A DNA stretch of 63,995 nt, the filler included. It is 9 parts of 9 records of this genome, joined end to end, with 100 filler letters (N's around TTAATTAATTAA, not from the genome) between each part and the next. Parts side by side here need not be neighbours in the genome. Positions count along the whole stretch, not along the records: positions 36,055 to 47,368 come from SRR31156797_22114; 8 more parts are not named here. The stretch is one strand, 5' to 3'. A model generated the notes under the pieces. It made no database searches. It worked only from the letters and a program-made list of their open reading frames with translations, and was not told the DNA's origin. Below, one piece after another: positions 30,572 to 63,431 of this stretch. The position numbers and the translations under genes are program-made. Position 1 is the first letter of the stretch. The number at the start of each line of letters is the position of its first letter.

Positions 30572-31041
30572 CCTGGGTACCCTGGATGGCACCGCTCTCC
30601 CGATCGATTCCCATCGGATTCGGGGTGGGCGCATTTTCCGTGGCTTTGGCCATTGGTACCCGGGGATATCTCGCACCGCTGGCCGAGGCCGGCACCATCT
30701 CGGCCGGTGCAGCTTTTGTCGTGCCGCTGATTCTGGCCTGGACCGTCGGCGTTTTGGCCTTCACCCCTCTTCTTTTCGGCAACTCGGCCAGCAACATCAA
30801 AACCCCAATCGTTCATGGGATGGGTATCATTGCCGCATTGAGCTATCTTCTTTTCGGAGAATCCATGAACCAGGACATGGCCATCATCATGGGGGCTGTG
30901 GTGGGTGTCCTTTATACCCTGCTGCAGGAGTGCATGGCCCGTCTTTTTTACAATCATGGCAGCAACCATGTGGACCCGCCGGCCTGCACGATTGCCACCG
31001 GCACCTTCATTTTAAACGGGATCAAACATTTCATCGGCTGA
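30572..31041 (+). CDS. Uncharacterised integral membrane protein (5' partial)
   Basis: Hydrophobic ORF ending HVDPPACTIA; co-oriented with the catabolic operon. Confidence 0.7.
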
Positions 31042-31218
31042 TGATGTGAAAGGACCTTCCTGGCGGAGAATTTGCCATGCTTGTCCCCCGATAATCACCC
31101 CAATGAGGGAGCAATTTTCCTTCTGTTGTGGGATTGCTTGACCTTACCCGGTTTGGTTTAATCGATAAATATCTTTTCTCATGAACACAACCCGACACTT
31201 TTAACCAAGGAGGCCATT

Positions 31219-32328
31219 ATGAGTCGTATGCTATTAGCACCCGGACGCTACATCCAAGGCGCCGGCGCCATTGATGAAATCGGTCAACATGCTGTTAAGT
31301 TTGGTACGAAAGCTTTGGTTACCGGCGGCCAGACGGCTTTGTCAATCTGTGCGGAAAGAATTTCCGCCAGCCTCGAATCAGCCGGCGTAGGTGCTATAAA
31401 AGAGAATTTTCTTGGCGAATGTTCCGATGAAGAGATTAATCGCCTGGTAAAGGTGGCCAAAGATGGGAGCTGTAATCTGATCATCGCGGCCGGCGGCGGT
31501 AAAATCATTGATACGGGAAAAGCAGTTGCCCATGACATGGGTGTGCCAGTGATCATCGTCCCTACCATCGCAGCGACCGATGCGCCTTGTTCAGCCCTTT
31601 CCGTTATCTATACTCCGGACGGCGTTTTTGAGCGCTACCTGGTATTACCTAACAATCCCCAGTGCGTATTGGTGGACACCAAGATTGTGGCCGAAGCACC
31701 GGCCCACTACCTCGTATCGGGAATGGGGGATGCGCTGGCTACCTTCTGGGAGGCAGACACCTGCGGCAAGAGCTGCAAACCGAATGCACTCACAGGTTCA
31801 ACGCCACCAACCATGTCGGCATTGGCGTTGGCTCGATTGTGTTACGATACACTGCTTGAACATGGTTTGAATGCCAAACTTGCCGTGGAACGTGATGTTG
31901 TGACCCCCGCAGTAGAAGCCATCGTGGAAGCCAATACCCTATTAAGTGGTTTGGGCTTTGAAAGCGGTGGGTTGGCAGGTTCGCACTCCGTTCACAACGG
32001 ATTGACGGTTCTTGAAAAATCCCATGGCAAATTACACGGCGAAAAAGTGGCTTTCGGTGTACTAACACAGCTAATCATGGAAGGGCGTCCTACGGAAGAT
32101 CTGGAAGATGTTCTTGATTTTTGCTTGAGCGTCGGTCTGCCGGTATGTTTCGAAGATTTGGGCATCACCAACCCCACTCAAAATGAGATTCGAGAAGTCG
32201 CTGAAGCAACAACCGCAGAGGGTGAAACAATTCATGCCACCTGGTTTGATGTAGACGCCGATAAAGTTGAAGCGGCTATTTGGACCGCAGATGCCATTGG
32301 TAGTCACTTTAAAAAGGAGGTGATGTAA
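31219..32328 (+). CDS. gldA: Glycerol dehydrogenase
   Basis: PGRYIQG, GGGK, PTIAATDAPCSALSV, SGLGFESGGLA..H and HGEKVAFG motifs. Confidence 0.92.
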   Translation: MSRMLLAPGRYIQGAGAIDEIGQHAVKFGTKALVTGGQTALSICAERISASLESAGVGAIKENFLGECSDEEINRLVKVAKDGSCNLIIAAGGGKIIDTGKAVAHDMGVPVIIVPTIAATDAPCSALSVIYTPDGVFERYLVLPNNPQCVLVDTKIVAEAPAHYLVSGMGDALATFWEADTCGKSCKPNALTGSTPPTMSALALARLCYDTLLEHGLNAKLAVERDVVTPAVEAIVEANTLLSGLGFESGGLAGSHSVHNGLTVLEKSHGKLHGEKVAFGVLTQLIMEGRPTEDLEDVLDFCLSVGLPVCFEDLGITNPTQNEIREVAEATTAEGETIHATWFDVDADKVEAAIWTADAIGSHFKKEVM

Positions 32329-32822
32329 TGGCGCTTCTCCCGGTCTCTGTTTCAATAGGTATTTTGTGCGCCATATGGTTCCATATCACCGTCTTGGTTC
32401 CATGGTTGATTGCATGGGTCGGTTATGCTGCCTGGGCAAGCTTTTATTACGCCGGGGGAGATGAAAAAGCCTTGCCCAAATCGCTTGCCGCCAACTTTGC
32501 GGGTATGATTCAGGGTGCACTCTTCTTTTGGCTCTGGACCCAGATCGGCGGGGGCAACATGATCGCGCTTTCCGTCATCATCGGGATCTTCTGTTTCGTC
32601 ATGACGATGGAGGGCAATATAGGTTTGCTGTCGGCCATTCCCGGGCAATTTGTTGGGGCAGCGGCCTATTTCGGTAATTTGGGGGCTCACGAAGGTGATA
32701 TCTGGGCTACGCTGATCAACACGCTAGTGTGCATGGCAATTGGCAACTTGGCCGGATTGCTGTCTGCAAAGCTACCGGCACTTTTCAAAAAGTCCGAACC
32801 TGCTGCAGAGTCTGTGGAATAG
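32328..32822 (+). CDS. DUF1097-like membrane protein
   Basis: WVGYAAWASFYYAGG and IPGQFVGAA motifs; stop/start overlap with gldA. Confidence 0.75.
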   Translation: MALLPVSVSIGILCAIWFHITVLVPWLIAWVGYAAWASFYYAGGDEKALPKSLAANFAGMIQGALFFWLWTQIGGGNMIALSVIIGIFCFVMTMEGNIGLLSAIPGQFVGAAAYFGNLGAHEGDIWATLINTLVCMAIGNLAGLLSAKLPALFKKSEPAAESVE

Positions 32823-33044
32823 AACTTAAAAAGCCGGGGCGCGGAAAGCCCCTAATTTGGATTTCATGTCTCCATTCGGATGGAGACCATGCTTCAGCAG
32901 GTTGAATTCCAGATGGATACATCCAGGGTCACCACCCACATTTTCTTAGTCGCTTCCAAAAAAGGGGGCGGCTTGAGAATCTTTTTGGATGTCAACCCGT
33001 TCGAGCTTAAACCCTATTTAATAATTTAATAAAGAGGAAAGATC

Positions 33045-33332
33045 ATGATTAAAGAAGCGTTGGGAATGATCGAAACAAAAGGCTTGGTGGCAAATATTGA
33101 GGCGTCGGATGCCATGGTCAAAGCCGCCAATGTCGTACTCGTCGGCCAGCGGCAGATTGGTGCCGGCCTGGTGACCACCATGGTCCGCGGGGATGTGGGC
33201 GCCGTGAAGGCTGCCACAGACGCCGGGGCAGCCGCAGCCGAAAAAGTCGGCTCCGTGGTTTCCGTGCATGTCATCCCAAGGCCCCATCAAGATGTGGAAT
33301 TGATTTTACCCACCGCCCCCACCGCGGAGTAG
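33045..33332 (+). CDS. pduA: BMC-H shell protein (PduA/PduJ/EutM-like)
   Basis: ALGMIETKG...DAMVKAANV...[10 protein letters not shown]...VHVIPRPH. Confidence 0.93.
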
Positions 33333-33385
33333 GGCCAAACCAAGTCATGTACTTCTTATAGGAGTTATTCAGGAGGAACAACCAG

Positions 33386-34204
33386 ATGGAAGAACAATTG
33401 ATTGAAAAAGTAATGCAGGAAGTCATGAAACGTGTTGGCGGCGGAGGAGCAGCGGAAGAACCGGCGAAGGAAGCCGCCAGTGACAACCCCGCCCCGGCAG
33501 TCCTCACCGAAGACTTGGTGCAGGTCACTGAATTTGTCGGTGCCGGCATCGGCGATACCATGGGGATTGTTATTGCCAATTTGGATTATACCATCCATGA
33601 AACCATGGGGTTCGACAAAAAATATCGCTCCATCGGTGTGATCGGTGGCCGCGTTGGGGCCGGTCCCCAGCTCATGGCGGCCGACGATGCCGTCAAAGCC
33701 ACCAACACGGAAATCATTCGGGTGGAAATGCCCCGGGATACCAAGGGCGGCGCCGGACATGGTAATCTCATTATTTTTGGAGCAGAGGATGTATCCGATG
33801 CCCGCCGCGCGGTGGAAGTGACCCTTGAAGTGCTGCCCAAATATTTCGGCGATGTGTATGCCAACGATGCCGGGTACACGGAAAACCAGTACTCCGCGAG
33901 AGCCAGTAAATGCCTCAATTTTGCACTCAAAGCCCCTGAAGGGAAGGCTTTTGGATTGATCCTGGGCGCACCTGCCGTGGTGGGCATGCTTATGATTGAC
34001 ACGGCCGTGAAAGCGGCCGATGTGGAGGTCGTCGGCTACGGATCCCCGGGCAACGGCACGTCAATGACCAACGAAGTGTTTATCTGGGTAACCGGAGACT
34101 CTGGGGCCGTTCGCCAGGCGGTGATCGCCGGACGGGATGTCGGCAACAAATTGTTGAGCGCCTGGGGCGAAGAGCCGAAAAGTATGACCACGCCGTATAT
34201 ATAG
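33386..34204 (+). CDS. pduB: BMC-T shell protein PduB
   Basis: TEFVG, PRDTKGGAGHG, QYSARAS and GDSGAVRQAV motifs; N-terminal amphipathic helix. Confidence 0.93.
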   Translation: MEEQLIEKVMQEVMKRVGGGGAAEEPAKEAASDNPAPAVLTEDLVQVTEFVGAGIGDTMGIVIANLDYTIHETMGFDKKYRSIGVIGGRVGAGPQLMAADDAVKATNTEIIRVEMPRDTKGGAGHGNLIIFGAEDVSDARRAVEVTLEVLPKYFGDVYANDAGYTENQYSARASKCLNFALKAPEGKAFGLILGAPAVVGMLMIDTAVKAADVEVVGYGSPGNGTSMTNEVFIWVTGDSGAVRQAVIAGRDVGNKLLSAWGEEPKSMTTPYI

Positions 34205-34217
34205 GGGGTAGAAGCAA

Positions 34218-35885
34218 ATGGCTAAACGACAAAAACGTTTTGAGGTACTGGCCGAACGGGCAGTTAATCAGGACGGATTCATAAAAGAGTGGGTGGATGT
34301 GGGCCTGGTGGCCATGGATAGCCCCAATGATCCTTCGCCCAGTATCAGGATTGAAAACGGATGCGTGGTGGAGATGGACGGCAAGCCCCGGGATCAATTC
34401 GATATGATCGATACCTGGATTGCCGATCATACCATCTCCACCGATGTGGCCGAAGAAGCCATGGGCATGGATTCCAATAAAATTGCCCGCATGCTGGTGG
34501 ACATCAATATCCCTCGGGAAGAGATTGTTCGCCTCTCGGTGGGGATGACCCCGGCCAAATATGTAGATGTCCTCAAGCAACTCAATGTGGTCGAGTTGAT
34601 GATGGCCATGCAGAAGCTGCGCAGCCGGCGGACACCCTCCAACCAGGCCCATGTGACCAATGTAAAAGACTGCGCGCCGCTGTTGGCCGCGGATGCCGCT
34701 GAAGCGACCCTAAGGGGTTTCGCCGAGATAGAGACCACGGTGGGAGTAGGACGCTATGCGCCCATGAACGCGCTCTCTCTGCTGGTGGGCGGTCAGACAG
34801 GCCGGCCCGGTGCCCTGGCCCAATGCGCCGTGGAAGAGGCTTTGGAATTGACCATGGGGATGAGGGGCTTGACGCATTATGCCGAAACCGTTTCGGTATA
34901 CGGCACGGAACAGGTTTTTGTGGACGGCGATGACACGCCCTGGTCTAAAAGTTTTCTCGCATCGGCCTATGCTTCCCGGGGGTTGAAAATGCGTTTTACC
35001 TCCGGCACCGGATCGGAAGTCCAGATGGGTTATGCCGAAGGCAAATCCATGCTCTACCTGGAAATCCGGTGTGTCATGGTTACCAAAGGTGCGGGGGTTC
35101 AGGGCCTGCAAAACGGCTCCATCAGTTGTGTGGGCGTTCCGGGCGCGGTACCCGCGGGTGTTCGGGCGATCCTGGCAGAGAATGTGGCCACGGTGCTCAA
35201 TGATCTCGAGGTGGCCTCTGGAAACGATCAAACCTTTACCCATTCTCCCATCCGTAACACAGCGCGTATGCTGATGCAGTTTCTGCCTGGCACCGATTTT
35301 ATCTTTTCGGGTTACAGCGCTTCTCCCAACTATGACAACATGTTCGCGGGATCCACCCACGATGTGGATGACTATGACGATATGCTGGTGCTCCAGCGGG
35401 ATCTGCAGACGGATATGTCTCTTCAACCGGTGAGCGAAGCCGATGTTATCGCCGCTCGTAACAAAGGGGTACGTGCACTTCAAGCCGTGTTTGAAGAACT
35501 CAATCTGCCGCCCATTACCGATGCTGAAGTCGAAGCGGCCACCTATGCCCATGGAAGTAATGATATGCCTGACCGCAATGTGCCGGAAGACCTGCGGGCC
35601 ATTGACGAGATGATGAATCGTGGGATCACCGGCCTGGATGTGGTACGGGCGCTGGCCAAACGTGGCTTCCAGGATGTGGCGGAAAGTGTGCTCAATATGC
35701 TCAAAGGAAAAGTCAGCGGGGATTATCTGCATACCTCGGCCATCTTCGATGCGGATTTCAACGTTATTTCTTCGGTCAATGATCTGAACGACTACACGGG
35801 ACCGGGGACCGGCTACCGGCTTGAGGGTGAGCGTTGGGAGAAATTGAAGGACATTCGTGCGGCCATCAGCCCTGAGGATGTTTAA
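34218..35885 (+). CDS. pduC: B12-dependent diol/glycerol dehydratase large subunit
   Basis: KRFEVL..R.VNQDGF, QAHVTN, ETVSVYGTE, DGDDTPWSK and MRFTSGTGSE motifs. Confidence 0.96.
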   Translation: MAKRQKRFEVLAERAVNQDGFIKEWVDVGLVAMDSPNDPSPSIRIENGCVVEMDGKPRDQFDMIDTWIADHTISTDVAEEAMGMDSNKIARMLVDINIPREEIVRLSVGMTPAKYVDVLKQLNVVELMMAMQKLRSRRTPSNQAHVTNVKDCAPLLAADAAEATLRGFAEIETTVGVGRYAPMNALSLLVGGQTGRPGALAQCAVEEALELTMGMRGLTHYAETVSVYGTEQVFVDGDDTPWSKSFLASAYASRGLKMRFTSGTGSEVQMGYAEGKSMLYLEIRCVMVTKGAGVQGLQNGSISCVGVPGAVPAGVRAILAENVATVLNDLEVASGNDQTFTHSPIRNTARMLMQFLPGTDFIFSGYSASPNYDNMFAGSTHDVDDYDDMLVLQRDLQTDMSLQPVSEADVIAARNKGVRALQAVFEELNLPPITDAEVEAATYAHGSNDMPDRNVPEDLRAIDEMMNRGITGLDVVRALAKRGFQDVAESVLNMLKGKVSGDYLHTSAIFDADFNVISSVNDLNDYTGPGTGYRLEGERWEKLKDIRAAISPEDV

Positions 35886-35911
35886 TAAAACCGGATAAAG
35901 GAGCACATACC

Positions 35912-35954
35912 ATGAAAATCACCGAAGAGATGGTCAAGGAAGTCATCCTCGAGG
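35912..35954 (+). CDS. pduD: Probable dehydratase medium subunit, start only (encapsulation-peptide-like MKITEEMVKEVILE)
   Basis: AAGGAG RBS, position directly after pduC, amphipathic helix; truncated by the contig end. Confidence 0.7.
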
Positions 35955-36054
35955 NNNNNNNNNNNNNNNNNNNNNNNNNNNNNNNNNNNNNNNNNNNNTT
36001 AATTAATTAANNNNNNNNNNNNNNNNNNNNNNNNNNNNNNNNNNNNNNNNNNNN

Positions 36055-36147
36055 GAGCAAATCGTAAGATTTGGCGGAGTTAATTAACCACATTTGTCGC
36101 AAAAGCTCGCTACGAGCACCTTTTGCTCTTTCGCAGGTGTTATATGC
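36055..36147 (-). mobile_element. attC-like cassette recombination site 1 (truncated by the contig end)
   Basis: The stop codon of the upstream gene lies in GCATATAAC, followed by N6-GAAAGAGC; the complementary arm TTTGCTC begins at the contig break. Confidence 0.6.
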
Positions 36148-37348
36148 TGGTTTTTTTAATCGTTAATCTATTCTTTTCCTCAGCAATTAACTTAGCAACA
36201 TCACTCGGAATTATATCTTGCTCCTCAGCTAGATTAAAATATTTAATCTTTAAGTCATTTAAAATAGTCAAATTGAAATCGTCAGCAATACAATGATTTT
36301 CATCAAGAATTGAGTCTAGAATTTTTTGTTGTTTGTCTTTTTCAATTCTATTCCATATACTAGGTTTAATAAACCAATGGTCTGAACCATAAATTAGACA
36401 GTTTTCAATTACACTCATCATCTTCAGTGGATTTTCAAATTGCGTCATAAAAGATTTGAGAGCATTATTATGTTTTTGTAAAGTTGAAAAGAATATATAA
36501 GTAGTATTAACATATGGAAGTATATTAATTACTACATATATTACTTTGTTATTAAAATAAAAATTGCCTTTCCCTGCAAGTGCGATTGGAATTTGTTCAT
36601 TAAAAGCTATGGCTACGCATGCAATTTTCTGAAATTTCTTTTTTTTCAAATCGTTTAATATATCATCACGATATGTATATAGGAATTTATTTAAGTTATT
36701 ATTGATTTTATTTAACTGTTTTTTAGCAAGTTTCAACCTATAATCCTCACTTTCAACATTTATATCATTAAACTTCAGATTCGGGTTATTTAAAACTTCA
36801 TTATCAAGATTTGAAATTATTGCATCTCTCATCATTTTATTACGAAATTTTAAATATCTTTTTATATCGTCTTTTATCGCCGCTATATGATGTTCACCTA
36901 TAACAATCTCTCGACAAACAGTTCTGTATAATTGTAATCCTATATGCTCTCCAGTGTTAAAATCTTTTTGGTTCTCAAACTCTCTAAACAGGTTTTCATG
37001 ATCCGAACAATAGCCCGGAAAAGTTGAAGCTTCATTAACTCCAACTGTTAACATTTCCATTTTTCCGTTCTTTAAATTAAAATTTGGTGTTAAAACATGA
37101 CTATTCTCGGCAAGTTCTTTTATTGAACTAGATTTTTGTATCGTATGGGATTTCTCAATGCTTTTTTTATTGCACCCATCAACAATACAAATTTGTTTCT
37201 TTTTCCAATATTTGAGTGCTTTAGGTCGACTATATTGGAACTTTAATCTCTCACGCTCATTGTCAAAAATAAAATCTGGATTAGACTGAAATTCGATCAA
37301 AGCCTTATCAATTGCAGCATTTATTTTATCACGTATCCTCTGTTCCAT
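36140..37348 (-). CDS. Hypothetical cassette protein with HNH-like/Zn motifs
   Basis: CxxxxC..SHTIQK and ASTFPGYCSDHE motifs; low GC; start MEQRIR lies just after attC-like site 2. Confidence 0.7.
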   Translation of the reverse strand: MEQRIRDKINAAIDKALIEFQSNPDFIFDNERERLKFQYSRPKALKYWKKKQICIVDGCNKKSIEKSHTIQKSSSIKELAENSHVLTPNFNLKNGKMEMLTVGVNEASTFPGYCSDHENLFREFENQKDFNTGEHIGLQLYRTVCREIVIGEHHIAAIKDDIKRYLKFRNKMMRDAIISNLDNEVLNNPNLKFNDINVESEDYRLKLAKKQLNKINNNLNKFLYTYRDDILNDLKKKKFQKIACVAIAFNEQIPIALAGKGNFYFNNKVIYVVINILPYVNTTYIFFSTLQKHNNALKSFMTQFENPLKMMSVIENCLIYGSDHWFIKPSIWNRIEKDKQQKILDSILDENHCIADDFNLTILNDLKIKYFNLAEEQDIIPSDVAKLIAEEKNRLTIKKTSI

Positions 37349-37367
37349 TTCTAAATCCGTGTTAAAC

Positions 37368-37502
37368 TTGCACATACGTTTGCGCTTAAAGAGTCGAGCC
37401 GACCTGGCAACAGTTCTCCGCTTTTTTAATGTTCCAAAGTAAAAATTTCTCACCGTCTTAAAAAAAGTATTTGAAGCATGCTCTTTCTAAGCGGTTGGCG
37501 GT
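37368..37502 (-). mobile_element. attC-like cassette recombination site 2
   Basis: Minus strand: ACCGCCAAC-CGCTTA-GAAAGAGC ... CTCTTTAAGCG-CAAAC-GTATGTGC, an imperfect inverted repeat with bulged bases that overlaps the upstream stop codon. Confidence 0.65.
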
Positions 37503-38803
37503 AGTTTTTTCTTGTGTTTATCCTCTTTATCCTCAATGATTCCAAGCTTTTGAAGATAATCATCGTCATACTTTATGTATTCATATTCTTCATTATAGAT
37601 GTCTTTGTAAACATCTTTAAACTTTTGTTCCTTTCGAATTTTATTAAACAGTGGCCATTCTTTGTATCCTACTTGAGGGAGTTCGTCTTCATCAACGCCA
37701 ATTTTTCTCATCAATTTATATACTTTATCATAATCGTCTAGCAAAACTGCCTTTGAAAGCTTAAATTTATCACTCATTGCAGACCAATCCATATTCTTCA
37801 TCATTTTTTCACATACTTCAGTTTGTTCATCCCACTTATATGCTTGTGCTTTATTTACATTAAACACAAGCTTAAACTCCTGTGAACTATGTTTTTTTAG
37901 AGTATTAGTTGCGAATTCAGACAAATTAATTGCAAGCTTATACTCTTTTCGTTGCAAAAGACGATAAATTATATCATTCAAATTTTCATCAGCTTCTTCA
38001 ACATCTTTTGGTAATAATTTCCTCCAAATTACTTGAGATAATTTAACTCCTATTTCAAATAGAACACTATATACTCTAGCAAGATATTTCTCATCAACAG
38101 TAAGCTCATCTCCTGTTGTTAAAACAGTTTCAAATTTTACATTATGTTTATTGCAGACGGAGATATATTGACTTGAAATAACACCATTCGAATGCACAAA
38201 TAAATTTCGTCGTTCAGTAATTTCAATAAAGTCACACCAAGAATCTAAATCTTTAGTTAAAACCATTCCAAGTTTATTTTCTAGCCATTTAAACTGGTTT
38301 GCATGGTTATCTCGAAGTACCGTTTCAATTTCTTTCTCAATAATATATTCTTTTGCCTCTTCGATAGAAGAATATTCTGTAAGTTTACTAAAAGTAAGAT
38401 TCTTATCTGAACTATTTAATAGTTCAGGTTTTAAGACAAATATTTTTCGAATTATGCTCCCAATATATGCATCAAATTGACTGACTAATGAAACAATGAA
38501 ATTACGTCTAATCAATTTTTGAGCTAAAAAAGAATTTTTAGCTTTTTTATCAAGGTCTAAATATTTGTTAATATGTTTAAATTCAATTTTTGTTGTTTCA
38601 TTGCCATCATCATCAGTTCCCACAATCCCTTTTTCCTGAATATATTCTTGTCGTTTTTTCTCTGAAGTCATTTGAGTAATTTTCAGTATCATATTGACCA
38701 AAGGATTTGTTTGGAACAAACTATCAATGTGATCAATAAATAAGTCGATTTCTTTTTTGAAACCATTTTTCATTTCGTCAGTATTATTATCTTCTTTCAT
38801 CAA
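37487..38803 (-). CDS. HEPN-domain protein (putative RNase / defence effector)
   Basis: IVSLVSQFDAYI helix, RxxxxH motif (ERRNLFVHSNG), helical C-terminal half. Confidence 0.7.
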   Translation of the reverse strand: MMKEDNNTDEMKNGFKKEIDLFIDHIDSLFQTNPLVNMILKITQMTSEKKRQEYIQEKGIVGTDDDGNETTKIEFKHINKYLDLDKKAKNSFLAQKLIRRNFIVSLVSQFDAYIGSIIRKIFVLKPELLNSSDKNLTFSKLTEYSSIEEAKEYIIEKEIETVLRDNHANQFKWLENKLGMVLTKDLDSWCDFIEITERRNLFVHSNGVISSQYISVCNKHNVKFETVLTTGDELTVDEKYLARVYSVLFEIGVKLSQVIWRKLLPKDVEEADENLNDIIYRLLQRKEYKLAINLSEFATNTLKKHSSQEFKLVFNVNKAQAYKWDEQTEVCEKMMKNMDWSAMSDKFKLSKAVLLDDYDKVYKLMRKIGVDEDELPQVGYKEWPLFNKIRKEQKFKDVYKDIYNEEYEYIKYDDDYLQKLGIIEDKEDKHKKKLPPTA

Positions 38804-39005
38804 TTCCCAGTATATTTTTTATATTTCACTATATAACACGATTTTTCCTTGCTTTATGAAAACACAACGTCGAACATCGCTAATTACCGCAACTAGAAGC
38901 TATCAGTAGTTACCTATCAATAGCCAACCACCGCTGGGTGGCTAAGTGTACCTTTGAGGTACGGTTATTCACTTCACGTCTATAAAAGTAGCAAAACAAT
39001 GCTAC

Positions 39006-39107
39006 AAAAACAACAGTCAATGAGTTAAATGATTATTTATTTAATTGGGGAACAATGAGCTTATAGGCACAAGCGGTACTTTGTCTAAGCTTAGTAACCA
39101 ATGCTTG
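39006..39107. repeat. ~100-bp direct repeat, copy 1
   Basis: Nearly identical to 41175-41275; contains the GCACAAGC...GCTTGTGT hairpin. Confidence 0.92.
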
Positions 39108-39172
39108 TGTCAGTTGGCGGAAGGGATTTAAACGGAGGCTTCAAGGACGCTTAAATTGCATACTTTGCCTTA

Positions 39173-39490
39173 TTATTGTAATAACTTGATTGCATACTCA
39201 AGTATCTCGTCTCTATTTTTCTTGACACCTTCTATTGTTTTTTGTACTTCAAAGTCCGGTTGTATACCAACTCCATGAAAAATATCGCCATTTTGATCCG
39301 TCACTTTTTTACCTGTCCAGGGAATCACGATATTTCCATAAAGAAATATGTTATTCGTATTGCCGGTGGATCCTGCGGTGCGTGTTCCAACAATTGTTGC
39401 GAGTTTGTAATGAGATATGATATTGAGAAAAGTCTCGGAATAGCTTATAGCACTTGCGTCAGTTAGGAATACTTTAGGTATTTCCAGCAT
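39173..39490 (-). pseudogene. C-terminal remnant of an S41-family peptidase
   Basis: AISYSE, VGTRTAG, GVGIQPD and DEILEYA motifs, but only 105 aa with no N-terminal part; abuts abiEii. Confidence 0.7.
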
Positions 39491-39514
39491 CGTTTTGTGT
39501 CTAAATTAAAGATG

Positions 39515-40306
39515 CTAAATTTTTTCAATCAATTCGTTAATCACCCATTCACTTGCTTCTTCCTGATTATACTTAATCCCCGCTCTCAACAATGCTTCCA
39601 TATCGCCTGTAAAATCAGAGTCATTTTGTTTTTGTTCAAAATTTAAAAGGAACTCCTTTTTGCTTGGTGGTCTTTTCCCAGTTGCAAATGTTGTATATTC
39701 TTTAAAACATTGAATTATTTGAGCTGTATCCAGTTCTAAATGCAATCGGGCATAGTCTAAATCAAACAAATCCCTTCCTTTGCTCCTTTGATATAGCGCC
39801 CTCAGTTTTGTTCCTAAAAGTTCGTTTATATCGTAAGTTTTAATATTTGCTTTACCAGAGAACCATTCGCTTTCAATTTCAAAAGGAAAGTCAACCCAAT
39901 CAAGTACATTGAAGTGTTCTTTGCAGTTTATCTCTAATTTTAAACGCATCCGTATTTCTTCATACTCCGAAGTAAAACGATACAATGCTTTTGCTCCATG
40001 TCCACGAACTTGTGTTGTCCTTTTTTCTTCGAAGAAGGTTATAACTTCATTTAACCTTTCCATAATGGGTTTTATAGGTCCTTCTTTAATTTGCACCAAA
40101 TCAATATCCTCTGAATATCGAGGTGCAGGATTAAGATAAAGTTTGTGTAATGCTGTGCCACCTCTGAAAGCAAGGTTTTCTCTCAGGAAATCATCAGTGA
40201 ATATTTCAACTAAGGTTCTGGAAATAATTAAATCCTGCTCAACCTGTGAAAATTCATTCCATGGTGCGTGTTCCTGCCACTTTGCTATATATGGTTTAGG
40301 TATCAT
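39515..40306 (-). CDS. abiEii: AbiEii/AbiGii nucleotidyltransferase toxin (type IV TA)
   Basis: LAFRGGTAL, RYSEDIDL and KLRALYQRSKGRDLFDL motifs. Confidence 0.92.
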   Translation of the reverse strand: MIPKPYIAKWQEHAPWNEFSQVEQDLIISRTLVEIFTDDFLRENLAFRGGTALHKLYLNPAPRYSEDIDLVQIKEGPIKPIMERLNEVITFFEEKRTTQVRGHGAKALYRFTSEYEEIRMRLKLEINCKEHFNVLDWVDFPFEIESEWFSGKANIKTYDINELLGTKLRALYQRSKGRDLFDLDYARLHLELDTAQIIQCFKEYTTFATGKRPPSKKEFLLNFEQKQNDSDFTGDMEALLRAGIKYNQEEASEWVINELIEKI

Positions 40307-41094
40307 AAATCGCTTTCTAATTTTACATTAACATCTACTTTCCACTTATTATCAACTGCACCTGGTTTCTCTTTTGATTTAGGACTTAATAAAACAGGGA
40401 AGAAATTTTTAGTCTTTAGCTCTGAATAAATCATTTCTTGAAATTCTTCTTCCATTCCTAGTTCTTCAAGCAAAAATCCAAATCTTTGCAAAGTACTTTT
40501 ATTGGGATACCAACTTAAAAGTTCTGATAAATCGGATTCAGTTAACTCTTCTGTGAGTTCCTCAATTGTAGCAAGCATTCTGTTTATTCCGCCCAATTTT
40601 GTCTGGTGATGTATTAAATCAACAATTGTTAAAGCAGGACTTGAAATTTTAAAAATCCCAGCATCTGATTTCTTCTGTAGAATATTTTTATCAGACCAGT
40701 TGGTTGTTGTAAAAAACCGAATGTCTATTGTGTTTTTTGAGATGTCGTTAAATTTTGGTTTCTCAGTTATTAAGTAATCTCGTTGAACCTGTTGGTGACT
40801 TGCTCCATGGAATTTAGCTGCGGAGAATAAGCCTACATAATAATTCCTATCCAGATGTTTAAATAATTTTTCACAGTAAAGTTGAAGTGGTAGTTTTTTT
40901 ACAGAAGAGTATCTGGGTGTTATAATTAAATAAAAACCCTTTCTGAGATTTACTATTTCTCCTTTCTCTGACAATCTATGGAGTTCGAATTTTAAAGAAT
41001 TACTGCTACCAGCTGTTTCTTGAGCAATCTCATCCAATGAAAATGAGTAGTTTTCAATTGATAACAGATATTTTATATATTCTTTCGCATTCAT
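40303..41094 (-). CDS. abiEi: AbiEi-family antitoxin (type IV TA)
   Basis: LRKGFYLI, YYVGLFSAA..HGA.HQ, SSPALT..D and LQRFGFLLE motifs; 4-bp overlap with the toxin. Confidence 0.9.
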   Translation of the reverse strand: MNAKEYIKYLLSIENYSFSLDEIAQETAGSSNSLKFELHRLSEKGEIVNLRKGFYLIITPRYSSVKKLPLQLYCEKLFKHLDRNYYVGLFSAAKFHGASHQQVQRDYLITEKPKFNDISKNTIDIRFFTTTNWSDKNILQKKSDAGIFKISSPALTIVDLIHHQTKLGGINRMLATIEELTEELTESDLSELLSWYPNKSTLQRFGFLLEELGMEEEFQEMIYSELKTKNFFPVLLSPKSKEKPGAVDNKWKVDVNVKLESDL

Positions 41095-41174
41095 ATCTAG
41101 TAAATATTCGATAAAAGTATCAAATTAATCTACCAATCTCAAATTATTACTATGCTTTCTTTGCACGATGGCAA

Positions 41175-41275
41175 AAAAACAACAGTCAATGAGTTAAATG
41201 ATATTTATTTAATTGGGAAATAATGAGCTTTTAGGCACAAGCGGTACTTTGTCTAAGCTTTGTAACCAATGCTTG
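41175..41275. repeat. ~100-bp direct repeat, copy 2
   Basis: Nearly identical to 39006-39107. Confidence 0.92.
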
Positions 41276-41313
41276 CACCATTTAAGGTGGACTTTAACTA
41301 TTATTTAGATATT

Positions 41314-42351
41314 TCACTTCCCAAAAGCTTTTAATACAACTACCAAACCTATGTAATCATCTCTATTGATGACTATCATGTCATTGAATGCCGTTTTTAT
41401 CCTTAATTTTCCGCCACCTTTTACCAAATCATAAATTTCAATGGTACCAGTATCTGCTTCTGCACGATGCGAGTTATGCACTAATACTGGTGCTTCTATC
41501 TTCACACATTTAGAACCATCGCTCATAAAGATTCTGGCCCCTTTCATGGTGGTTTTATCTCCATCTTTTTCAAGAGTCTCTGCGTGTATGAGGGTCTCTC
41601 CAGCTGGTCCAAAATCAGGCAGTTCTACTATTTCATTCTTATTCAAAACCCAGTCTTTGCCGGTTGAATCATACAATTGAATGGTATAATCGATTAGCTC
41701 TTGTCCGCCGGGTTTTCCGTGGCCGGGAATTACAACTTTAGCTTCGCCGTATGCTTTTTTAATGTTTTTAGCCGTTGCTGACCATGCTGCGAGATTGGCA
41801 TCTCCAATATTACCTACCCAACCATTGTAGTTTCGAATGCCATTTCCGGCAAACAGCACCTTCTTTTCAGGTACATAAACTACTATTCCATCATTGGTGT
41901 GGGCCTCTCCTAAAAAATGTGCTATGACCTTGCTCCCACCAACCTCTATCTCTAGTTTGGGATCAAAACCGTTTTCGGGCACAGGTAATCCCTTTTGCTT
42001 AGCGATGCTCCTGGTTTTCTCATAAGCATAAGTTGGAATTCCATTTTCCTGTACCACATCCAATCCTTCCATGGCATCAGTATGCCACCGATCAATAATA
42101 TAGCCTATGATATTTGCTTTTAGCTCTTTACGAACATAATCAATCAGGTTTTGTGTTTCAATATCGGATTCTGGAGTTGAAACAATAATTGCCTCATCTT
42201 CATTCACATAAACTAATCCATTATTATTTCCCTGGATATGCATGTAACAGTTTTCTGTTATATGATGAAGGCTTAAGTTTTCAGAGATTTCTATGGGTTG
42301 AGCAAATAGTCTAACAGACAATAGGCTAAAAAACAGCAGAAGTATTCTCAT
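41314..42351 (-). CDS. Exported subclass-B1-like metallo-beta-lactamase-fold protein with atypical metal ligands and a C-terminal extension
   Basis: NGL, GEAHTNDG, GNIGDANL..W and VIPGHG match B1 enzymes; DRWHTD and AGN replace HxHxD and GGC. Confidence 0.8.
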   Translation of the reverse strand: MRILLLFFSLLSVRLFAQPIEISENLSLHHITENCYMHIQGNNNGLVYVNEDEAIIVSTPESDIETQNLIDYVRKELKANIIGYIIDRWHTDAMEGLDVVQENGIPTYAYEKTRSIAKQKGLPVPENGFDPKLEIEVGGSKVIAHFLGEAHTNDGIVVYVPEKKVLFAGNGIRNYNGWVGNIGDANLAAWSATAKNIKKAYGEAKVVIPGHGKPGGQELIDYTIQLYDSTGKDWVLNKNEIVELPDFGPAGETLIHAETLEKDGDKTTMKGARIFMSDGSKCVKIEAPVLVHNSHRAEADTGTIEIYDLVKGGGKLRIKTAFNDMIVINRDDYIGLVVVLKAFGK

Positions 42352-42393
42352 ACATACATTATTTGCATTACTAACTTAAAAATTAGTGATTTA

Positions 42394-42711
42394 TTATAAA
42401 TAATCTTGTCTTGGTGGCGAAAAAATATCAATTACTTCGCCCGGCTCAATAACCTCCCAGGCATGATTTACATTTTCGGGTATTGAATAACTATCTCCTG
42501 CTTTTAGAATCTCTTTCACATCCGTATATTCCAGGATGTATTCTCCAGAAATTACATAACCACTCTGCTCATTAGGATGTTTGTGAATGGGGACTTTATC
42601 ACCTACTTTGTATTTCATTTTAGTGATCATAGATTTAATACCTGTAGCCAGTACTTCAAATGCTACTCCTTTAAAAACTCTATGTGTAGATTGTTCAGAT
42701 TTTACTATCAT
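42394..42711 (-). CDS. Cupin domain protein
   Basis: HKHPNEQ.GY..SG and IP.NV.H motifs. Confidence 0.9.
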   Translation of the reverse strand: MIVKSEQSTHRVFKGVAFEVLATGIKSMITKMKYKVGDKVPIHKHPNEQSGYVISGEYILEYTDVKEILKAGDSYSIPENVNHAWEVIEPGEVIDIFSPPRQDYL

Positions 42712-42770
42712 AAACAGTATTTTGATGAATTCCTATAACTTCTTTTTTTAATAAAGCACACAAATAGGAA

Positions 42771-44690
42771 TTAAGAATTATTTGCAAGTTTATATGGAAT
42801 AAAAACTCTGAAGGTTGAGCCAATTTCCTGTTCGGACTCTACTTTTATATCACCACCCAACATATCAGCATATGATTTTGAAATAGTAAGTCCCAATCCT
42901 GATCCCTCAAATACCCTTTTATCTTCTATATCAGATTGCTCAAAACGATTAAATATAGCTTCTAATCTGTTTTCCGGAATACCTATCCCAGTATCTTTCA
43001 CAAAAAACTCTAAAACTTCCTTTTTATCAAAGGTTTTCTTAACACAACCAAAAGTTACACTACCCTTTTCAGTAAACTTTAAAGCATTTTTTATCAAATT
43101 GGTAAGGATGGAATCCAATTTTGTTTTATCTGTTATTATCAGGGACTCTTCATCAGATAAAGTAGGTTTATAGATCAATTTCAACCCTTTAAATTCTGCT
43201 TCTTTTGAGAAAAAGGTATGATATTCCTCCAAAATATCATTCACACAAACTTCTTCATTATGCACTTTCACCTGGTCAGCTTCAATTTTTGAAATATCTA
43301 TAATATCGTTGATGGTATCAAGCATTCGTTTTCCGCTTTTTTCAATAATTTGAATATACTTATCCAGACTTTCACCTTTTAACTTTGGATTCTTTAACAG
43401 TTTAGTAAATCCAAGAATTCCATTCATTGGCGTTCGAATTTCGTGACTCATATTGGCCAAAAAAGCAGATTTTAGTCTATCACTCTCCTCTGCCATTTCC
43501 TTAGCCACCTCCAGTTGCACGTTCATTTCCTGCATTTTATCTATCGTACGTTGCTTGTCTTCCATTTGTTGATTAATCTCCTTGCTCATATTTGCAAAGG
43601 AATTAGCCAAAGATTTCAGCTCCACTACAGATGTCTCAGGAATTTTAAAATCAGCTCTATTAATGTTATAATGGTCAATTCCTATAATAATTTTCTGTAT
43701 GGGTATTAATACTTTACGACTAAACAGGAAAACCGTCAATAAAAGTAAAAATACTGCAGTGGCAGATAATAAAAGCGTTATATAAACTATCTTATTAAGC
43801 GGATCGTATACATCTGACATATAACCCGTTACAACCAAATAGAAACCAAACTCAGGTATAATTTCGGTGTAAGCATATTTTTTTTGTGGTTGTTTATCTT
43901 CAGGGTTTTTCCAGTCATACAATGTAATTTCTCCCGGTGAAGATAAAACACGGTCTATGGCCTCAGCCTGTTCAGTTAAAAATGATTCATCTTTATGTTT
44001 TTCAACCATTGGGTGGTAAATAAGATTTTTGCTACTATCATAAAGCAATGCATATCCTGATCCTTCTATTCTCTTTGAAGCCAATATCTTCTTTAAATCT
44101 TTCGTATTCAATAGTTGTGTAAATTCGCTTCTATATGAAGTTGCACCAAACACCCAGTTCCATTCAGGAAATTCTTTTACATAAGCCACTTTTTTTCGGT
44201 ATTTATTATCCTCCGGGTTTTTCCATGGATATTCGGCAAATCCATTTCGCACACTGTCCCAAACGTGGCATCCTATGGTTCCGGAACAATTTTCGTGGCG
44301 ACTATATGGATGGATATCCAACACAAGCACACCCTCTTTGTTCTCCACAGCTACAAGATATCCGGAAGTTCCAATAGTTTGCCTGCTGCAGTATTTTTGA
44401 ATAGCATCTTTGGCTTCAATCTCAGACATCTCCCCGGCCTTGAACTTTTCATAATAAGTTTTTACCACATCAAGATTAGCTTCTGTAATACCTCTTAAAT
44501 AATTTTCTATGGCTGAATTGAGTGAGTGTTGAATAGTATGATGAATCTCTTTACATTCTATTTTAAGGTCTTCTTCTGCTGTATGTATTAAATAATGTCT
44601 GATTAGTCCTAAATCTGTAGCAAAAATAGCAGCTATAATAAGCACCATATAGATACCAAAATACAACAATATCTGGCTCCTTAACTTCAT
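42771..44690 (-). CDS. Cache-domain sensor histidine kinase
   Basis: Two Cache-like Y.WKNP repeats, HAMP, FLANMSHEIRTPMNG and HATPase boxes. Confidence 0.92.
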   Translation of the reverse strand: MKLRSQILLYFGIYMVLIIAAIFATDLGLIRHYLIHTAEEDLKIECKEIHHTIQHSLNSAIENYLRGITEANLDVVKTYYEKFKAGEMSEIEAKDAIQKYCSRQTIGTSGYLVAVENKEGVLVLDIHPYSRHENCSGTIGCHVWDSVRNGFAEYPWKNPEDNKYRKKVAYVKEFPEWNWVFGATSYRSEFTQLLNTKDLKKILASKRIEGSGYALLYDSSKNLIYHPMVEKHKDESFLTEQAEAIDRVLSSPGEITLYDWKNPEDKQPQKKYAYTEIIPEFGFYLVVTGYMSDVYDPLNKIVYITLLLSATAVFLLLLTVFLFSRKVLIPIQKIIIGIDHYNINRADFKIPETSVVELKSLANSFANMSKEINQQMEDKQRTIDKMQEMNVQLEVAKEMAEESDRLKSAFLANMSHEIRTPMNGILGFTKLLKNPKLKGESLDKYIQIIEKSGKRMLDTINDIIDISKIEADQVKVHNEEVCVNDILEEYHTFFSKEAEFKGLKLIYKPTLSDEESLIITDKTKLDSILTNLIKNALKFTEKGSVTFGCVKKTFDKKEVLEFFVKDTGIGIPENRLEAIFNRFEQSDIEDKRVFEGSGLGLTISKSYADMLGGDIKVESEQEIGSTFRVFIPYKLANNS

Positions 44691-44981
44691 AATATTCAGA
44701 CAATTACTTAGTTGATAAAATCTTAAATATCACAATTGAAAGCATGACTAATTCAGGCTGGTTATGTTATTTAAGATGCAGTTTATTTGTTAAAAATCTT
44801 ACATCTGGAAATATCCAAATGAAAACTTATCGATACCTAAATTAAGATTTTTATAAACTGTATCAAAGTAAATTTGAATTGCAATCTATATTATTCTGAT
44901 ATAGAGATCGTAATAAACTATAAAAAATATGTTCGCACACTAAACAAATATGATTACACAAGCAATGTATTTAATCGCTTC

Positions 44982-45992
44982 CTACCTGCCACTACCTTGC
45001 CGTTCTAGCATCCAACCTGGATATTCAGGGTCAAGTTTACTTATTTCATCCAATTCTTTAAGCTCATTATCATCCAGCTTAACATCAACAGAACTTAAAT
45101 TATCTGCTAATTGCGCAGGTTTATTGGCACCAATAATGACTGTAGAAACCACAGGTTGATGCAATAACCAGGCGATGGCAATTTGGGCTACAGAAACACC
45201 TTTTTCATCTGCAATTTTTTTCATTACATCAACTATATCAAAGGCTTTTTCTTTATTGATTGGTGGAAAATCAAAATTAACCCTTCTACCATCCTTGTTT
45301 TTACCTTCGCGATCGTATTTCCCACTTAATAATCCTCCGGCAAGCGGACTCCAGACCATGAGTCCAACTTTTTGATCTAAAAGCAGTGGTATAAGCTCAC
45401 GTTCCAAATCGCGACCTGCAATAGTGTAATAAGCCTGAAGCGAAACAAACTTGCTTAAGTATTGCTGAGCAGAAATTCCAAGTGCTTTCATCAATTGCCA
45501 TGCGGCAAGGTTACTGGCGCCTATGTAACGTACTTTTCCACTTTTAACCAATATATCAAGCGCTTCAAGTGTTTCTTCTAATGGTGTTAACCTATCGAAT
45601 CCATGTATCTGATATAAATCAATATAATCCATGTTTAGCCTTTTCAAACTTTCATCGGCTTGTTGTAGAATATGTTTTTTACTTAACCCCACATTATTAG
45701 GGCCTTCCCCCATTTGCCCACGCACTTTAGTAGCAATCACCAAATCATCACGCTTTAGGCCTAAATCGCGAACCGCCTTACCTGTCATTTCTTCGCTTAA
45801 TCCTTCACTATAGATGTTAGCTGTATCGATAAAATTTATACCTCCGTCAACAGCTTGTTTTACCAAACTATTCACCTGATCCTGTGGTAAAGTTCCAATG
45901 GCAGTCCACATACCGCGCCCGCCAAATGTCATGGTTCCTAAACAAAGCTCTGAGACCAACAAACCTGTGTTCCCTAATAAGTTGTATTTCAT
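44982..45992 (-). CDS. Aldo/keto reductase
   Basis: LCLGTMTFG, DTANIY, IATK, DYIDLYQIH and WSPLAGG motifs. Confidence 0.95.
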   Translation of the reverse strand: MKYNLLGNTGLLVSELCLGTMTFGGRGMWTAIGTLPQDQVNSLVKQAVDGGINFIDTANIYSEGLSEEMTGKAVRDLGLKRDDLVIATKVRGQMGEGPNNVGLSKKHILQQADESLKRLNMDYIDLYQIHGFDRLTPLEETLEALDILVKSGKVRYIGASNLAAWQLMKALGISAQQYLSKFVSLQAYYTIAGRDLERELIPLLLDQKVGLMVWSPLAGGLLSGKYDREGKNKDGRRVNFDFPPINKEKAFDIVDVMKKIADEKGVSVAQIAIAWLLHQPVVSTVIIGANKPAQLADNLSSVDVKLDDNELKELDEISKLDPEYPGWMLERQGSGR

Positions 45993-46147
45993 AGAATTAG
46001 TGTTTTTATAGTAGAAATAATAATTTACAATTATTAACACAATTGAATTACATTAGTTCAATAATCTTTAATAAAACTATTTTTAGTCTATAATAAAAAA
46101 TTGTAACTTAGTCTACTAATCCAGTTGTGAAACTTAAAATCAAAGCT

Positions 46148-47368
46148 ATGAGAATAACATTATTATTTATTTTTTTTGTATTTGGTATTTCTGCCTTCGC
46201 GCAAAATTCAGAAAGTAAGGATGCTGTGCATATAAATGGACATGTAACTTATGGCCTTAATGCTTTAGATAGTATGAAAGTTACTATGGCCATTTTTGGT
46301 GAGGAAACAATTCTTACAACCTATACAGATACTACTGGTTGGTATGAATTTATTAATCCTGATCTTGTTCCCGGAGAAGATACAGTATTACTTTATGTAG
46401 CTGGACAAAACACAGTATATGGTACAATTGTAATAAGAAAAAAAAGAATTATTAATTCATATCAAATTACAGCTGATTTCATCGTGGCTCATAATAGTCC
46501 AAATAATACATGCATTGCTGCATTTGGGTTTAATTATGTAAGTGGAAATGTTGTTCAATTTATCAACCTTTCTTACGACACCGATTCAACAAATTATTAT
46601 TGGAATTTTGGCGATGGGAACTATAGTATTGAAAAGCATCCATTACACACATATAATGCCAACGGCGAATATAATGTATGGCTTTCCATGGAGCATGAGG
46701 AATGTTATGATTCATGGACAGAAGAAGTCGAAATTGATCAACCACCAATGTTTTCTGGTCAAATTTTATATGATGGAAGCCATGAAACAGAATTTATAGT
46801 TAGACTAATACCATTAAGTGATCCTAAAAGCAACTGGTACAATGGTGTTGTTGATGATAATGGGTATTTTAGTTTTATTGAAGTACCAACAGACAACTAT
46901 ATAATTGAAGCTATACCTACAAATATGTATACCTACATTTACCCAAAACCAATACCCACATACTATCCCAATAATCTATATTGGTCTGAGGCAAATATTG
47001 CGCAACCTAATGGTGAGCATGCCATTGAATTAATAACATCTAGTTTTATTCATAGCGGAGCGAATAATATTGAGTGTACAATTAATGACGCTGATTATTT
47101 ACTGGACAATAGACCCACTGTAATCCTAATGAATGAAAACTATGAACCATTAACTGTATCAACTATCTTTAGCGGGCTTAATTACAGCATAATTGACCTT
47201 CAGGAAGGAACCTATTACATATATCCACAATATGCAGGCAAAGGAACCATTCCTCAACAAGTTACTTTTGACAATTCCAGTGAACCTACTCAATACATTG
47301 AATTTGAAGTTACTGAAACTCACATTGCACCTCCGGGGATGAGTATTGATGAAGTATCACAGGGCTTT
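46148..47368 (+). CDS. Exported PKD-domain protein (3' partial, probable T9SS substrate)
   Basis: WNFGDG..S....P.HTY...G.Y.V.L PKD signature and PTYYP motif. Confidence 0.8.
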
Positions 47369-60681: not shown

Positions 60682-60826
60682 GGGCGGCCTCCTGTTTGTA
60701 CGCAATCGGAATTATAACACAACGGCGCACATTAAAAAAACCGCAGAGATTGAAACGCCCCTCTTCGTTGTTGAGGGAAAAAATAGATGAAACATATTTT
60801 TTAATGAACCCAGGAAGAGGGGTGTT

Positions 60827-62399: not shown

Positions 62400-62411
62400 T
62401 TGAGGTAGAGT

Positions 62412-63428: not shown

Positions 63429-63431
63429 GAA

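Follow-up and report, generated by a model that had tools for sequence, protein, structure and literature searches.

The 63,995-base stretch of DNA analysed here, which we call the window, consists of nine contigs joined by N44-TTAATTAATTAA-N44 linkers. One of these contigs (36055-47368, 11,314 bp, 33% guanine plus cytosine, GC) carries at its low-coordinate end two genes, gene 1 and gene 2, each followed by a putative recombination site (site 1 and site 2). We propose that the region from 36055 to about 39170, and probably on to about 41300, represents part of an integron-like cassette array from a marine, Salinivirgaceae-like member of the Bacteroidales, with a recombinase other than IntI, and we regard this reading as likely. 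Since position 36055 is a contig end, the array is cut off there, and whatever precedes it in the window comes from a different contig. In other genomes such sites form families, fold as covarying hairpins, have cassette boundaries at G^TT (the caret marks the boundary) and are linked to one family of recombinases. The initial annotation of the window had suggested a divergent cassette system, either resembling a CALIN (attC sites clustered without an integron integrase) or driven by a distinct tyrosine recombinase, and the site family, the array-linked recombinase and the mobility of gene 1 described below all support that suggestion.

In the proposed arrangement each cassette would hold a single gene, HEPN-like gene 1 in one and gene 2 in the next, with a peptidase fragment lying upstream together with an AbiE toxin-antitoxin module, which other genomes have as a cassette. 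An intact cassette would start with the TT of a GTT box (R') and end with a hairpin of the form R''(..AAC)-L''-loop-L'-spacer-G, and its 5' end would be the reverse complement of its own R''. A tyrosine recombinase would excise and insert the cassettes by cutting G^TT in the folded bottom strand. The enzyme is most likely not IntI; it would be an N-terminally extended Xer-like recombinase that heads a co-oriented array elsewhere in the genome and acts in trans. We infer the catalysis by a Xer-like recombinase, the folding of a single strand, the circular intermediates and the action in trans. The copy in the window looks partly decayed, both R' boxes having lost one base: a G is gone from that of gene 1 (GTTG-CGGTAAT, compared with its relatives), and a T from that of gene 2 (GT-ATGTGC, compared with the relative at locus L003), which destroys its GTT.

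Site families and cassette boundaries

We compared positions 36055-41320 by BLAST with 401 sampled Bacteroidales genomes. Over 85 nt, site 2 (36058-36142) shares 92% of its bases with part of a complete Bacteroidales genome (G558:C1:4433389-4433473); its identity to a stretch of G304, a metagenome-assembled genome (MAG) of the Salinivirgaceae, is 75%. The G558 counterpart is the R''-proximal half of a site of about 190 nt, AAC^ACCTGCGAAAGAGCAAAAGG...CCTTTCGCTCATTAGCAGGAGAC^GTTAAGTGC. An nhmmer profile made from seven other long sites, with the site closest to site 2 left out, matched the window at 36144-36058 (E=1.1e-10, profile positions 4-88 of 189), and this was its sole significant match in the window. 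The long-site profile found 14 full sites, of which nine lie in the distal array of G558 (L181, L190), two in its recombinase-proximal array (L189) and three on one G304 contig; no sites were found with it on other Bacteroidota loci. RNAalifold folded the 14 sites into a single long hairpin with compensatory changes in 14 of the 28 pairs. The full G558 site rules out two candidate readings of site 2, namely a 3' arm that begins with the GCTC of the contig end, and a short 64-nt site ending GTTAATT. A stem detector of our own for AAC..GTT gave many false matches at a low threshold and was applied only for picking sites within known spacers.

The sites of the G558 arrays have R''..AAC and GTT..R' boxes, and the R' of one site is commonly the exact 9-nt reverse complement of the R'' of the next. 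Counted by reading, this was the case at five of the six consecutive junctions of the distal array and at four of five in the proximal array, examples being GTTACCAGT with ACTGGTAAC, GTTGTGCAA with TTGCACAAC and GTTACCAAC with GTTGGTAAC.

The sequencing runs agree with a repeated site 2. A possible source run holds a contig identical to that of the window and ending at the same base. Another contig, similar in depth, matches 36075-36142 apart from seven differences in 68 positions, and three contigs of similar depth lie over 36105-36107, where the depth is 543.8 as against 158.5 for the contig. Since three contigs cover it, site 2 is a multi-copy repeat in that run, which explains the break of the assembly at this point.

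Gene 1 supplies evidence for mobility. Its protein is 78-80% identical to relatives in a Cyclobacteriaceae MAG (L001), where the gene is a solitary insertion amid housekeeping genes, and in Aureibaculum luteum (L002), where it lies between a TIR-domain gene and an M78-peptidase gene. Conservation between these two loci begins at TTGGCGGTAATTA (TTGGCGG), the base before it being G in one and A in the other, and runs through the open reading frame (ORF) and a 137-nt site to ..ATACAAACCG (..AAACCG), past which L002 continues with TTGGTAG.. and L001 with ATATC... From the start and the end of this conservation the boundary of the cassette falls at G^TT, where integron cassettes have it too. Judged by these junctions, gene 1 forms in other genomes a mobile unit whose limits lie at G^TT. 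The shared site consists, in order, of R'' ACTACCGCCAA(C/A), a spacer, L'' GT(A/T)TAAAAG(C/T)AATGGCG, a loop, L' CGCCACT(G/A)CTCT(T/C)ATAC, the spacer AAACC and then G; the loop codes for about the last 30 residues of the protein. Contigs from elsewhere point the same way. Short contigs in two runs of another study carry gene 1 at about 97-98% identity and low depth. One of them, a 181-nt contig from a microbial-mat run, can be aligned over 38746-38890 except for its last 30 nt, so that homology ends within about 3 nt of the predicted G^TT. Another, 151 nt long, covers 37476-37625 with four differences, hence the R''/L'' junction of gene 1 exists elsewhere too. Only small parts of the stretch, at low depth, are present in runs X2 and X3, and none in run X4.

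The 3' end of gene 1 differs from that of its relatives. Their ORFs extend about 32 codons further, into their attC, whereas window gene 1 is 3'-truncated at R''. Nucleotide identity between the window copy and the relatives drops from 66-86% to 35-43% directly past CTACCGCCAA, while L001 and L002, unlike the window copy, remain alike through the whole site. To judge by this comparison, a different (foreign) site body is joined to window gene 1 at R'' and its ORF is shorter. Several further observations concern the relatives themselves. The final 30 or so codons of the gene 1 relative lie within the hairpin site (L001 7294-7430, L002 7273-7409). The 3' junction of the L001 unit (5960-7430) reads ..AAACCG^ATATC and represents an insertion outside an array, at a non-GTT site. 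At L002 1330-4900 lies a second A. luteum array, without a recombinase, that has three direct repeats of about 200 nt, each ending ..GGTTAT.C..ATGTT before an ORF; the cassette that follows them codes for a TIR protein of the CAP12/Pycsar type.

The family of gene 2 is spread over many phyla and has invariant Cys/His residues (C54, C59, H68, C114, H117); 90 relatives of about 400 aa lack a Pfam domain. A single-sequence query recovered no gene 2 loci in genome contigs, and an alignment query recovered 62. Relatives sit in cassettes with attC-type sites and matching ends in L003, L004 and L150; the cassette ends are GTTAGGCAC... and ..GCACATAAC in L003, and in L150 GTTAGCGAAA and TTTCGCTAAC, which are complementary at 10 of 10 positions. 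In L144 and L145 the relatives lie outside cassettes.

Within the window, the sites were first recognised by the initial annotation from a motif, AAC-N6-GAAAGAGC, after each of the two genes, and this claim bore up well. There are exactly two matches in the 63,995 bases, one after each gene, against 0.06 expected from the mean of 100 shuffles, two of which also reached two matches. The motif reads AACCGCTTAGAAAGAGC at 37496-37480 (minus strand), where it spans the stop codon of gene 1, and AACACCTGCGAAAGAGC at 36141-36125 (minus strand), directly past the stop of gene 2. The complementarities claimed between the 5' ends at 38893 and 37377 and the downstream boxes are likewise present, each with one missing base and one mismatch: GTTGCGGTAAT is in this sense the reverse complement of the gene 1 box ACTACCGCCAAC (37505-37494), and GTATGTGC that of the gene 2 box GCATATAAC. 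For cassette 1, the 197-nt leader contains a match to the 12-mer at edit distance 2, a result that 89 of 5000 shuffles equalled. Complementarity by itself carries modest weight.

Other parts of that annotation stood in part. It described an imperfect inverted repeat after each gene; site 1 does pair over about 80 nt, but the partner arm of site 2 lies beyond the contig end and a local hairpin alone is visible there. Site 1 equals the short site class in total length (138 nt) and layout; CGCTTA with TAAGCG and AAGAG with CTCTT form a stem that spans about 80 nt and contains a 2-nt bulge, the stem being weak and R' degenerate (GTATGTG). The deviation of the cores from RYYYAAC/GTTRRRY holds for the window, but intact relatives are canonical (GCCTAAC and GTTAGGC), so the local deviation is mostly decay. 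The idea that a missing base locks the cassettes in is plausible at the gene 2 junction, where GTT is destroyed, but not at that of gene 1. Custom models of the sites, proposed as a check, detect site 2 by means of the long-site profile, but site 1 is found neither by that profile nor by the covariance model R1 described below.

Recombinases linked to arrays in other genomes

A search for tyrosine recombinases next to similar sites had also been proposed; none is present in the window, but they were found beside arrays in other genomes. In A. luteum (L074) a 381-aa tyrosine recombinase is followed, after a gap of 6 nt and in the same orientation, by the first of at least ten co-directional ORFs that reach the contig start. 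The sites of this array have R'' boxes such as GCCTAAC, L'' GTATATAAA.., L' ..TTCATATAC, a spacer and R' GTTRRRY, and each cassette start is complementary to its own R''. In the recombinase an N-terminal extension of about 110 aa precedes Phage_int_SAM and Phage_integrase domains; the best-scoring model is NF040815 (XerA-type, 239 bits against a cut-off of 220), followed by models of XerD and XerC. The IntI model TIGR02249 aligned to it below its cut-off and in two pieces, 7-177 and 241-313 of 315, and array-linked recombinases as a group match that model in two pieces only (about 4-180 and 238-315 of 315), again below cut-off. The skipped model positions, about 180-238, are presumably the place where the IntI-specific insert is expected. 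No match to TIGR02249 above the 265-bit cut-off was obtained in any of the eight genomes with such arrays or cassettes, G558 and G304 included.

Full-length relatives of the L074 recombinase occur in 20 of 301 sampled Bacteroidota genomes, the query's own genome among them, and a homologue from Cyclobacteriaceae shares 57% identity with it along the full length. Array-linked recombinases are found in several copies per genome, at contig ends, and have N-terminal extensions of about 110-250 aa; the sites in their arrays measure about 138-204 nt, plus two of 61 nt. In G558 the second array begins directly after a 503-aa N-extended Xer-like recombinase, 3.95 Mb away from the first, recombinase-less array, and contains a mixture of long and GTATA-type sites. 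Among the best 120 of the 6480 relatives of the G558 recombinase there was no named Bacteroides protein; Carboxylicivirga, Marinifilum and Plebeiibacterium are among the genera with relatives. A small Cys-rich ORF (114-131 aa, no Pfam family) lies divergently just upstream of the array-linked recombinase in three loci (Table 1) and may be its partner or regulator.

We analysed 19 recombinase loci, mostly over 12 kb downstream of the gene. The covariance model R1 (core GTATA) detected 50 sites in 17 of them, every match being co-oriented with the recombinase, and none in the remaining two (L121, L127). Six sites aligned as bottom strands share an R stem and a 16-bp L stem; 89% of the cells pair, compared with 29-51% when slid, ten of the 23 pairs covary and two G.U wobbles are invariant. 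The 50 GTATA-type sites, from 20 sources, gave similar values (91.2% of cells paired against 26-58% when slid, compensatory change in 18 of 23 pairs) in an alignment that was fitted to the model and is hence biased towards structure. The AAC/GTT triplets are retained in 46-48 of the 50 sites, and one G.U wobble of the modelled bottom strand in 49.

The rest of the array and its surroundings

Features of the array are collected in Table 1. Read along the minus strand, the contig starts with a PKD-like gene (itself on the plus strand), an aldo/keto reductase, a Cache histidine kinase and a cupin, and continues with a metallo-beta-lactamase-fold protein that ends at 41314 (a weak Pfam match, below cut-off) and one copy of a 110-nt repeat. 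AbiEi, AbiEii, the S41 peptidase fragment and the second copy of the repeat come next, and gene 1, site 1, gene 2 and site 2 lead to the contig end. Gene 1, gene 2, AbiEi, AbiEii and the S41 fragment are thus all encoded on the minus strand, with 25-37% GC over 36000-41199.

Table 1. Positions of the array features in the window and of Cys-rich ORFs beside array-linked recombinases
Feature	Position	Strand	Description
Site 2	36055..36149	-	R'' CAGCATATAAC 36149-36139, then the first ~85 nt of a putative long attC-type site with L'' box ACCTGCGAAAGAGCAAAAGG and inner CCGCCAAATCTTACGATTTG arm; cut mid-site by the contig end
Gene 2	36140..37348	-	Cassette ORF, 402 aa, ATG at 37348
Site 1	37370..37505	-	R'' ACTACCGCCAAC 37505-37494; L'' CGCTTAGAAAGAGC 37493-37480; ~80-nt loop; L' GCTCGACTCTTTAAGCG 37399-37383; spacer CAAAC 37382-37378; degenerate R' GTATGTGC 37377-37370
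Gene 1	37487..38800	-	Cassette ORF, 437 aa, ATG at 38800; Rx4-6H HEPN-like motif (RRNLFVH)
Gene 1 cassette 5' boundary	38883..38893	-	R' remnant GTTGCGGTAAT; relatives (G/A)TTGGCGGTAAT
Non-coding stretch	38894..39172	-	Between S41 fragment and gene 1; GTTTAAAT..CCGCCAAC at 39120-39113; repeat copy B (38996-39107); ..TTGGCTA..GATAGCTTCTA ahead of GTT
S41 peptidase C-terminal fragment	39173..39490	-	105 aa; Pfam PF03572, profile positions 88-165 of 165 only
AbiEi/AbiEii module	39515..41183	-	AbiEii 39515-40306, AbiEi 40303-41094, ~90-nt leader; Pfam and PADLOC matches
Direct-repeat copy A	41165..41275	-	~110 nt, 95% identical to copy B
Cys-rich ORF	L074 8127-8522; L073 3424-3816; L076 1896-2240	+	Divergent from the array-linked recombinase

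The AbiE module, a mobile unit that is widely shared, was found at 15 places in 15 of the 401 sampled Bacteroidales genomes, with 74-92% nucleotide identity, and most of these matches begin at the AbiEii stop codon. At locus L170 an attC-type site precedes the module, which starts G^TTGTGTTT; the start in L172, GTTGTGTTT, is the same. In view of these starts the array in the window may reach up to about 41300. The AbiE module and the S41 fragment lie between copies A and B of the 110-nt repeat, which may represent the centre of a site that was duplicated, a promoter region or what an insertion left behind. The S41 fragment begins 24 nt past the AbiEii stop, directly after ..CACAAAAC^G. The sequence just ahead of the fragment is like the 3' end of an attC-type site, and a junction may lie here. 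Further on, 38894-39172 may be a disrupted long site, on account of a likeness to the halves of G558 long sites that was judged by eye; neither R1 nor the long-site profile detected a site there.

Gene 1 has no Pfam match and only a weak PADLOC match (RTasHEPN, E=0.0027), and Atlas gave weak leads only for the gene 1 and gene 2 proteins. Scans of the window for tRNA, tmRNA and Rfam families returned no matches, and the other eight contigs contain no further copies of site 1, site 2 or the 110-nt repeat. The pattern AAC-N6-GAAAGAGC had six matches in G304, as against one for a control pattern, and was rejected there since all six resemble coding sequence.

Some observations concern the contig and the bin. 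The one relative found of the contig's histidine kinase is on a 2.3-kb contig of G304. In the possible source run the depth rises from 158 to more than 5000 at 43237-43614, the HisKA-coding part of the kinase gene; many other contigs cover this conserved domain in a complex sample, and the peak is no signal of copy number. The other end of the contig (47281-47368) overlaps a second contig of similar depth with five differences in 88 positions, and both ends of the contig are repeats. GC is about 54% in the contigs at 30572-35954 and 58933-63995 and 26-42% in the others, and given this split the bin may be mixed. Across the nine contigs GC spans 26-54%.

Alternative explanations and known systems

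Several results weigh against a cassette array served by an Xer-like recombinase. The link between the array in the window and a recombinase rests on other genomes: the initial annotation had stated that no intI is present in the 8.5 kb upstream, and this was borne out by the absence of a recombinase among the scanned ORFs of at least 80 aa on the contig and by tblastn of the whole window with two array-linked recombinases. The regions analysed around recombinases are almost all downstream, so that the figure of 17 loci in 19 has no upstream control of equal size. Between the window and its relatives homology breaks at R'' (AAC^), in gene 1 as well as in site 2 compared with G558; this is a non-canonical crossover point, so an extra event is needed, such as top-strand recombination or a deletion. 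Site 1 is the weaker of the two sites: it scored only 6.8 bits with R1, which is not significant, the best R1 match in the window (E=0.49) falls inside gene 1 and none falls at the sites, the long-site profile gave no match to it, and its minimum-energy fold in ViennaRNA is without the long-range stem. Fold z-scores are unremarkable for all sites tested (+0.67 to -1.9). The complementarity of cassette 2, tested with the 11-mer CAGCATATAAC, is at chance level (4998 of 5000 shuffles equal). A search of 185,579 species genomes for GAAAGAGC-N60-90-GCTCNNCTCTT-N7-AAAC returned nine matches, where about eight were estimated by chance, and none was site-like.

Could the whole pattern be accidental, two similar 17-mers and some short complementary words in AT-rich DNA? 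We consider this extremely improbable. The shuffles with two exact motif matches and the chance-level complementarity of cassette 2 speak for it, but chance would have to produce in site 2 a match to an independent profile, 92% identity to a site in another genome and a repeat in the source sample. It also seems very unlikely to us that the repeats are intergenic hairpins, such as terminators, elements resembling repetitive extragenic palindromes or regulatory RNAs, in a defence island whose genes move by other means. The sites do follow stop codons as terminators would, their fold energies are unexceptional, and the gene 2 relatives in L144 and L145 lack such sites. Terminators, however, leave unexplained the exact 9-nt complementarity between starts and downstream boxes, the breaks of homology at G^TT in different genomes, and the constant presence, in 17 of 19 loci, of one recombinase family linked to the sites in the same orientation; nor does the window contain an Rfam family.

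That the array is the remnant of a classical integron, a CALIN whose ordinary attC sites would be served by a canonical IntI elsewhere in the genome, is in our judgement a slim prospect. A CALIN is defined by at least two attC sites with no integrase nearby; here there are two sites and no integrase in the 8.5 kb upstream, in an array that leaves the contig and in which a model backs site 2 only. The R''-L''-L'-R' order with AAC and GTT, the G^TT boundary and the match between the 5' end and R'' are all as in integron cassettes, and a review (PMC8618304) counts Bacteroidota among the integron-bearing phyla. Against this, the eight genomes with arrays or cassettes have no IntI-model match above cut-off and their best matches skip positions 180-238 or so, and the IntegronFinder 2.0 paper (PMC9024848) gives only In0 elements and one Salinibacter integron for the Bacteroidetes. 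A different matter is whether these particular cassettes, although of integron-like origin, are fossils that no longer move, a serious possibility to which we accord somewhat less than an even chance. It would account for the lost bases in both R' boxes, for a site 1 that fits neither site model, for the 3' truncation of gene 1 and for the peptidase fragment and 110-nt duplication directly upstream. Yet both ORFs are intact, site 2 is as well preserved as its 92% identity to an intact site implies and has at least three similar copies in the source sample, and gene 1 occurs with the same R''/L'' junction at 97-98% identity in a sample from another study.

Returning to an array with a non-IntI recombinase, we extend it to a wider proposal that we hold to be evenly poised between right and wrong. 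Several Bacteroidota lineages would possess an integron analogue without IntI, in which an N-extended Xer-like recombinase lacking the IntI insert captures and shuffles single-gene cassettes at the G^TT of long folded attC-type sites; conserved G.T wobbles would mark the recombining strand, rAID-1 (recombinase-associated acquired interbacterial defence) of gut Bacteroides would be one branch, and marine and soil members would stock phage-defence genes. The proposal gives the mechanism a testable anatomy, namely boxes R and L, a boundary at G^TT, a hairpin that covaries and whose wobbles mark the strand, two families of sites and a candidate recombinase. If it is true, Bacteroidota cassette arrays could be annotated in a systematic way and searched for the defence genes they store, and hairpin-site cassette recombination would be independent of the IntI-specific domain, which offers a direct test of the need for the insert.

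The likeness to integrons lies in one-gene cassettes of one orientation, in sites of the form R''(..AAC)-L''-loop-L'-R'(GTT..) with a G^TT boundary, in a cassette 5' end complementary to its own R'', in site families that are uniform within a host, in arrays that can stand far from the recombinase gene and in a covarying, strand-asymmetric hairpin. Strand choice in integrons relies on extrahelical bases. The linked recombinase here differs in having no IntI-specific insert, in scoring below the IntI cut-off and in its N-terminal extension of about 110-250 aa; it also has the orientation of the array, the first ORFs follow it almost without a gap, and the sites are long. The insert domain of IntI is regarded as essential for integron recombination (PMC8138268), and integron surveys report almost no integrons in Bacteroidetes (PMC9024848; 10.1101/2024.07.02.601686).

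Besides integrons, the closest known systems are the rAID-1 clusters of gut Bacteroidales, called 'reminiscent of integrons' by Ross et al. 2019 (10.1101/471110), where they are defined by a 5' XerD-like recombinase at least 44% identical to B. fragilis BF9343_RS08045, orphan type VI secretion system (T6SS) immunity cargo, at least two co-directional genes, GC of at most 41% and repeated intergenic motifs. Their biogenesis was still described as an open question in 2025 (PMC12247911). In the literature searched, which lay outside subscription journals, figures and the rAID supplements, we found no integron-like Bacteroidota system beyond rAID-1 and no description of folded attC-type sites with R/L boxes. 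Compared by layout only, the arrays in L074, L189 and others agree with rAID-1, and so does the window, with co-directional genes, 25-37% GC and a motif common to both sites. The cargo here differs in resembling phage-defence and abortive-infection genes (HEPN-like, AbiE, and the TIR gene in L002), and the hosts are marine or environmental Bacteroidales, Flavobacteriia, Cytophagia and Sphingobacteriia.

With the dimer resolvases XerC, XerD and XerA the array-linked recombinases share a catalytic core, which scores best with NF040815 and then with XerD and XerC, but they differ from these resolvases by the extra N-terminal region, by several copies per genome and by a constant linkage to arrays. 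Sites of the dif type are short duplex cores, whereas the array sites described here are hairpins of about 140-200 nt.

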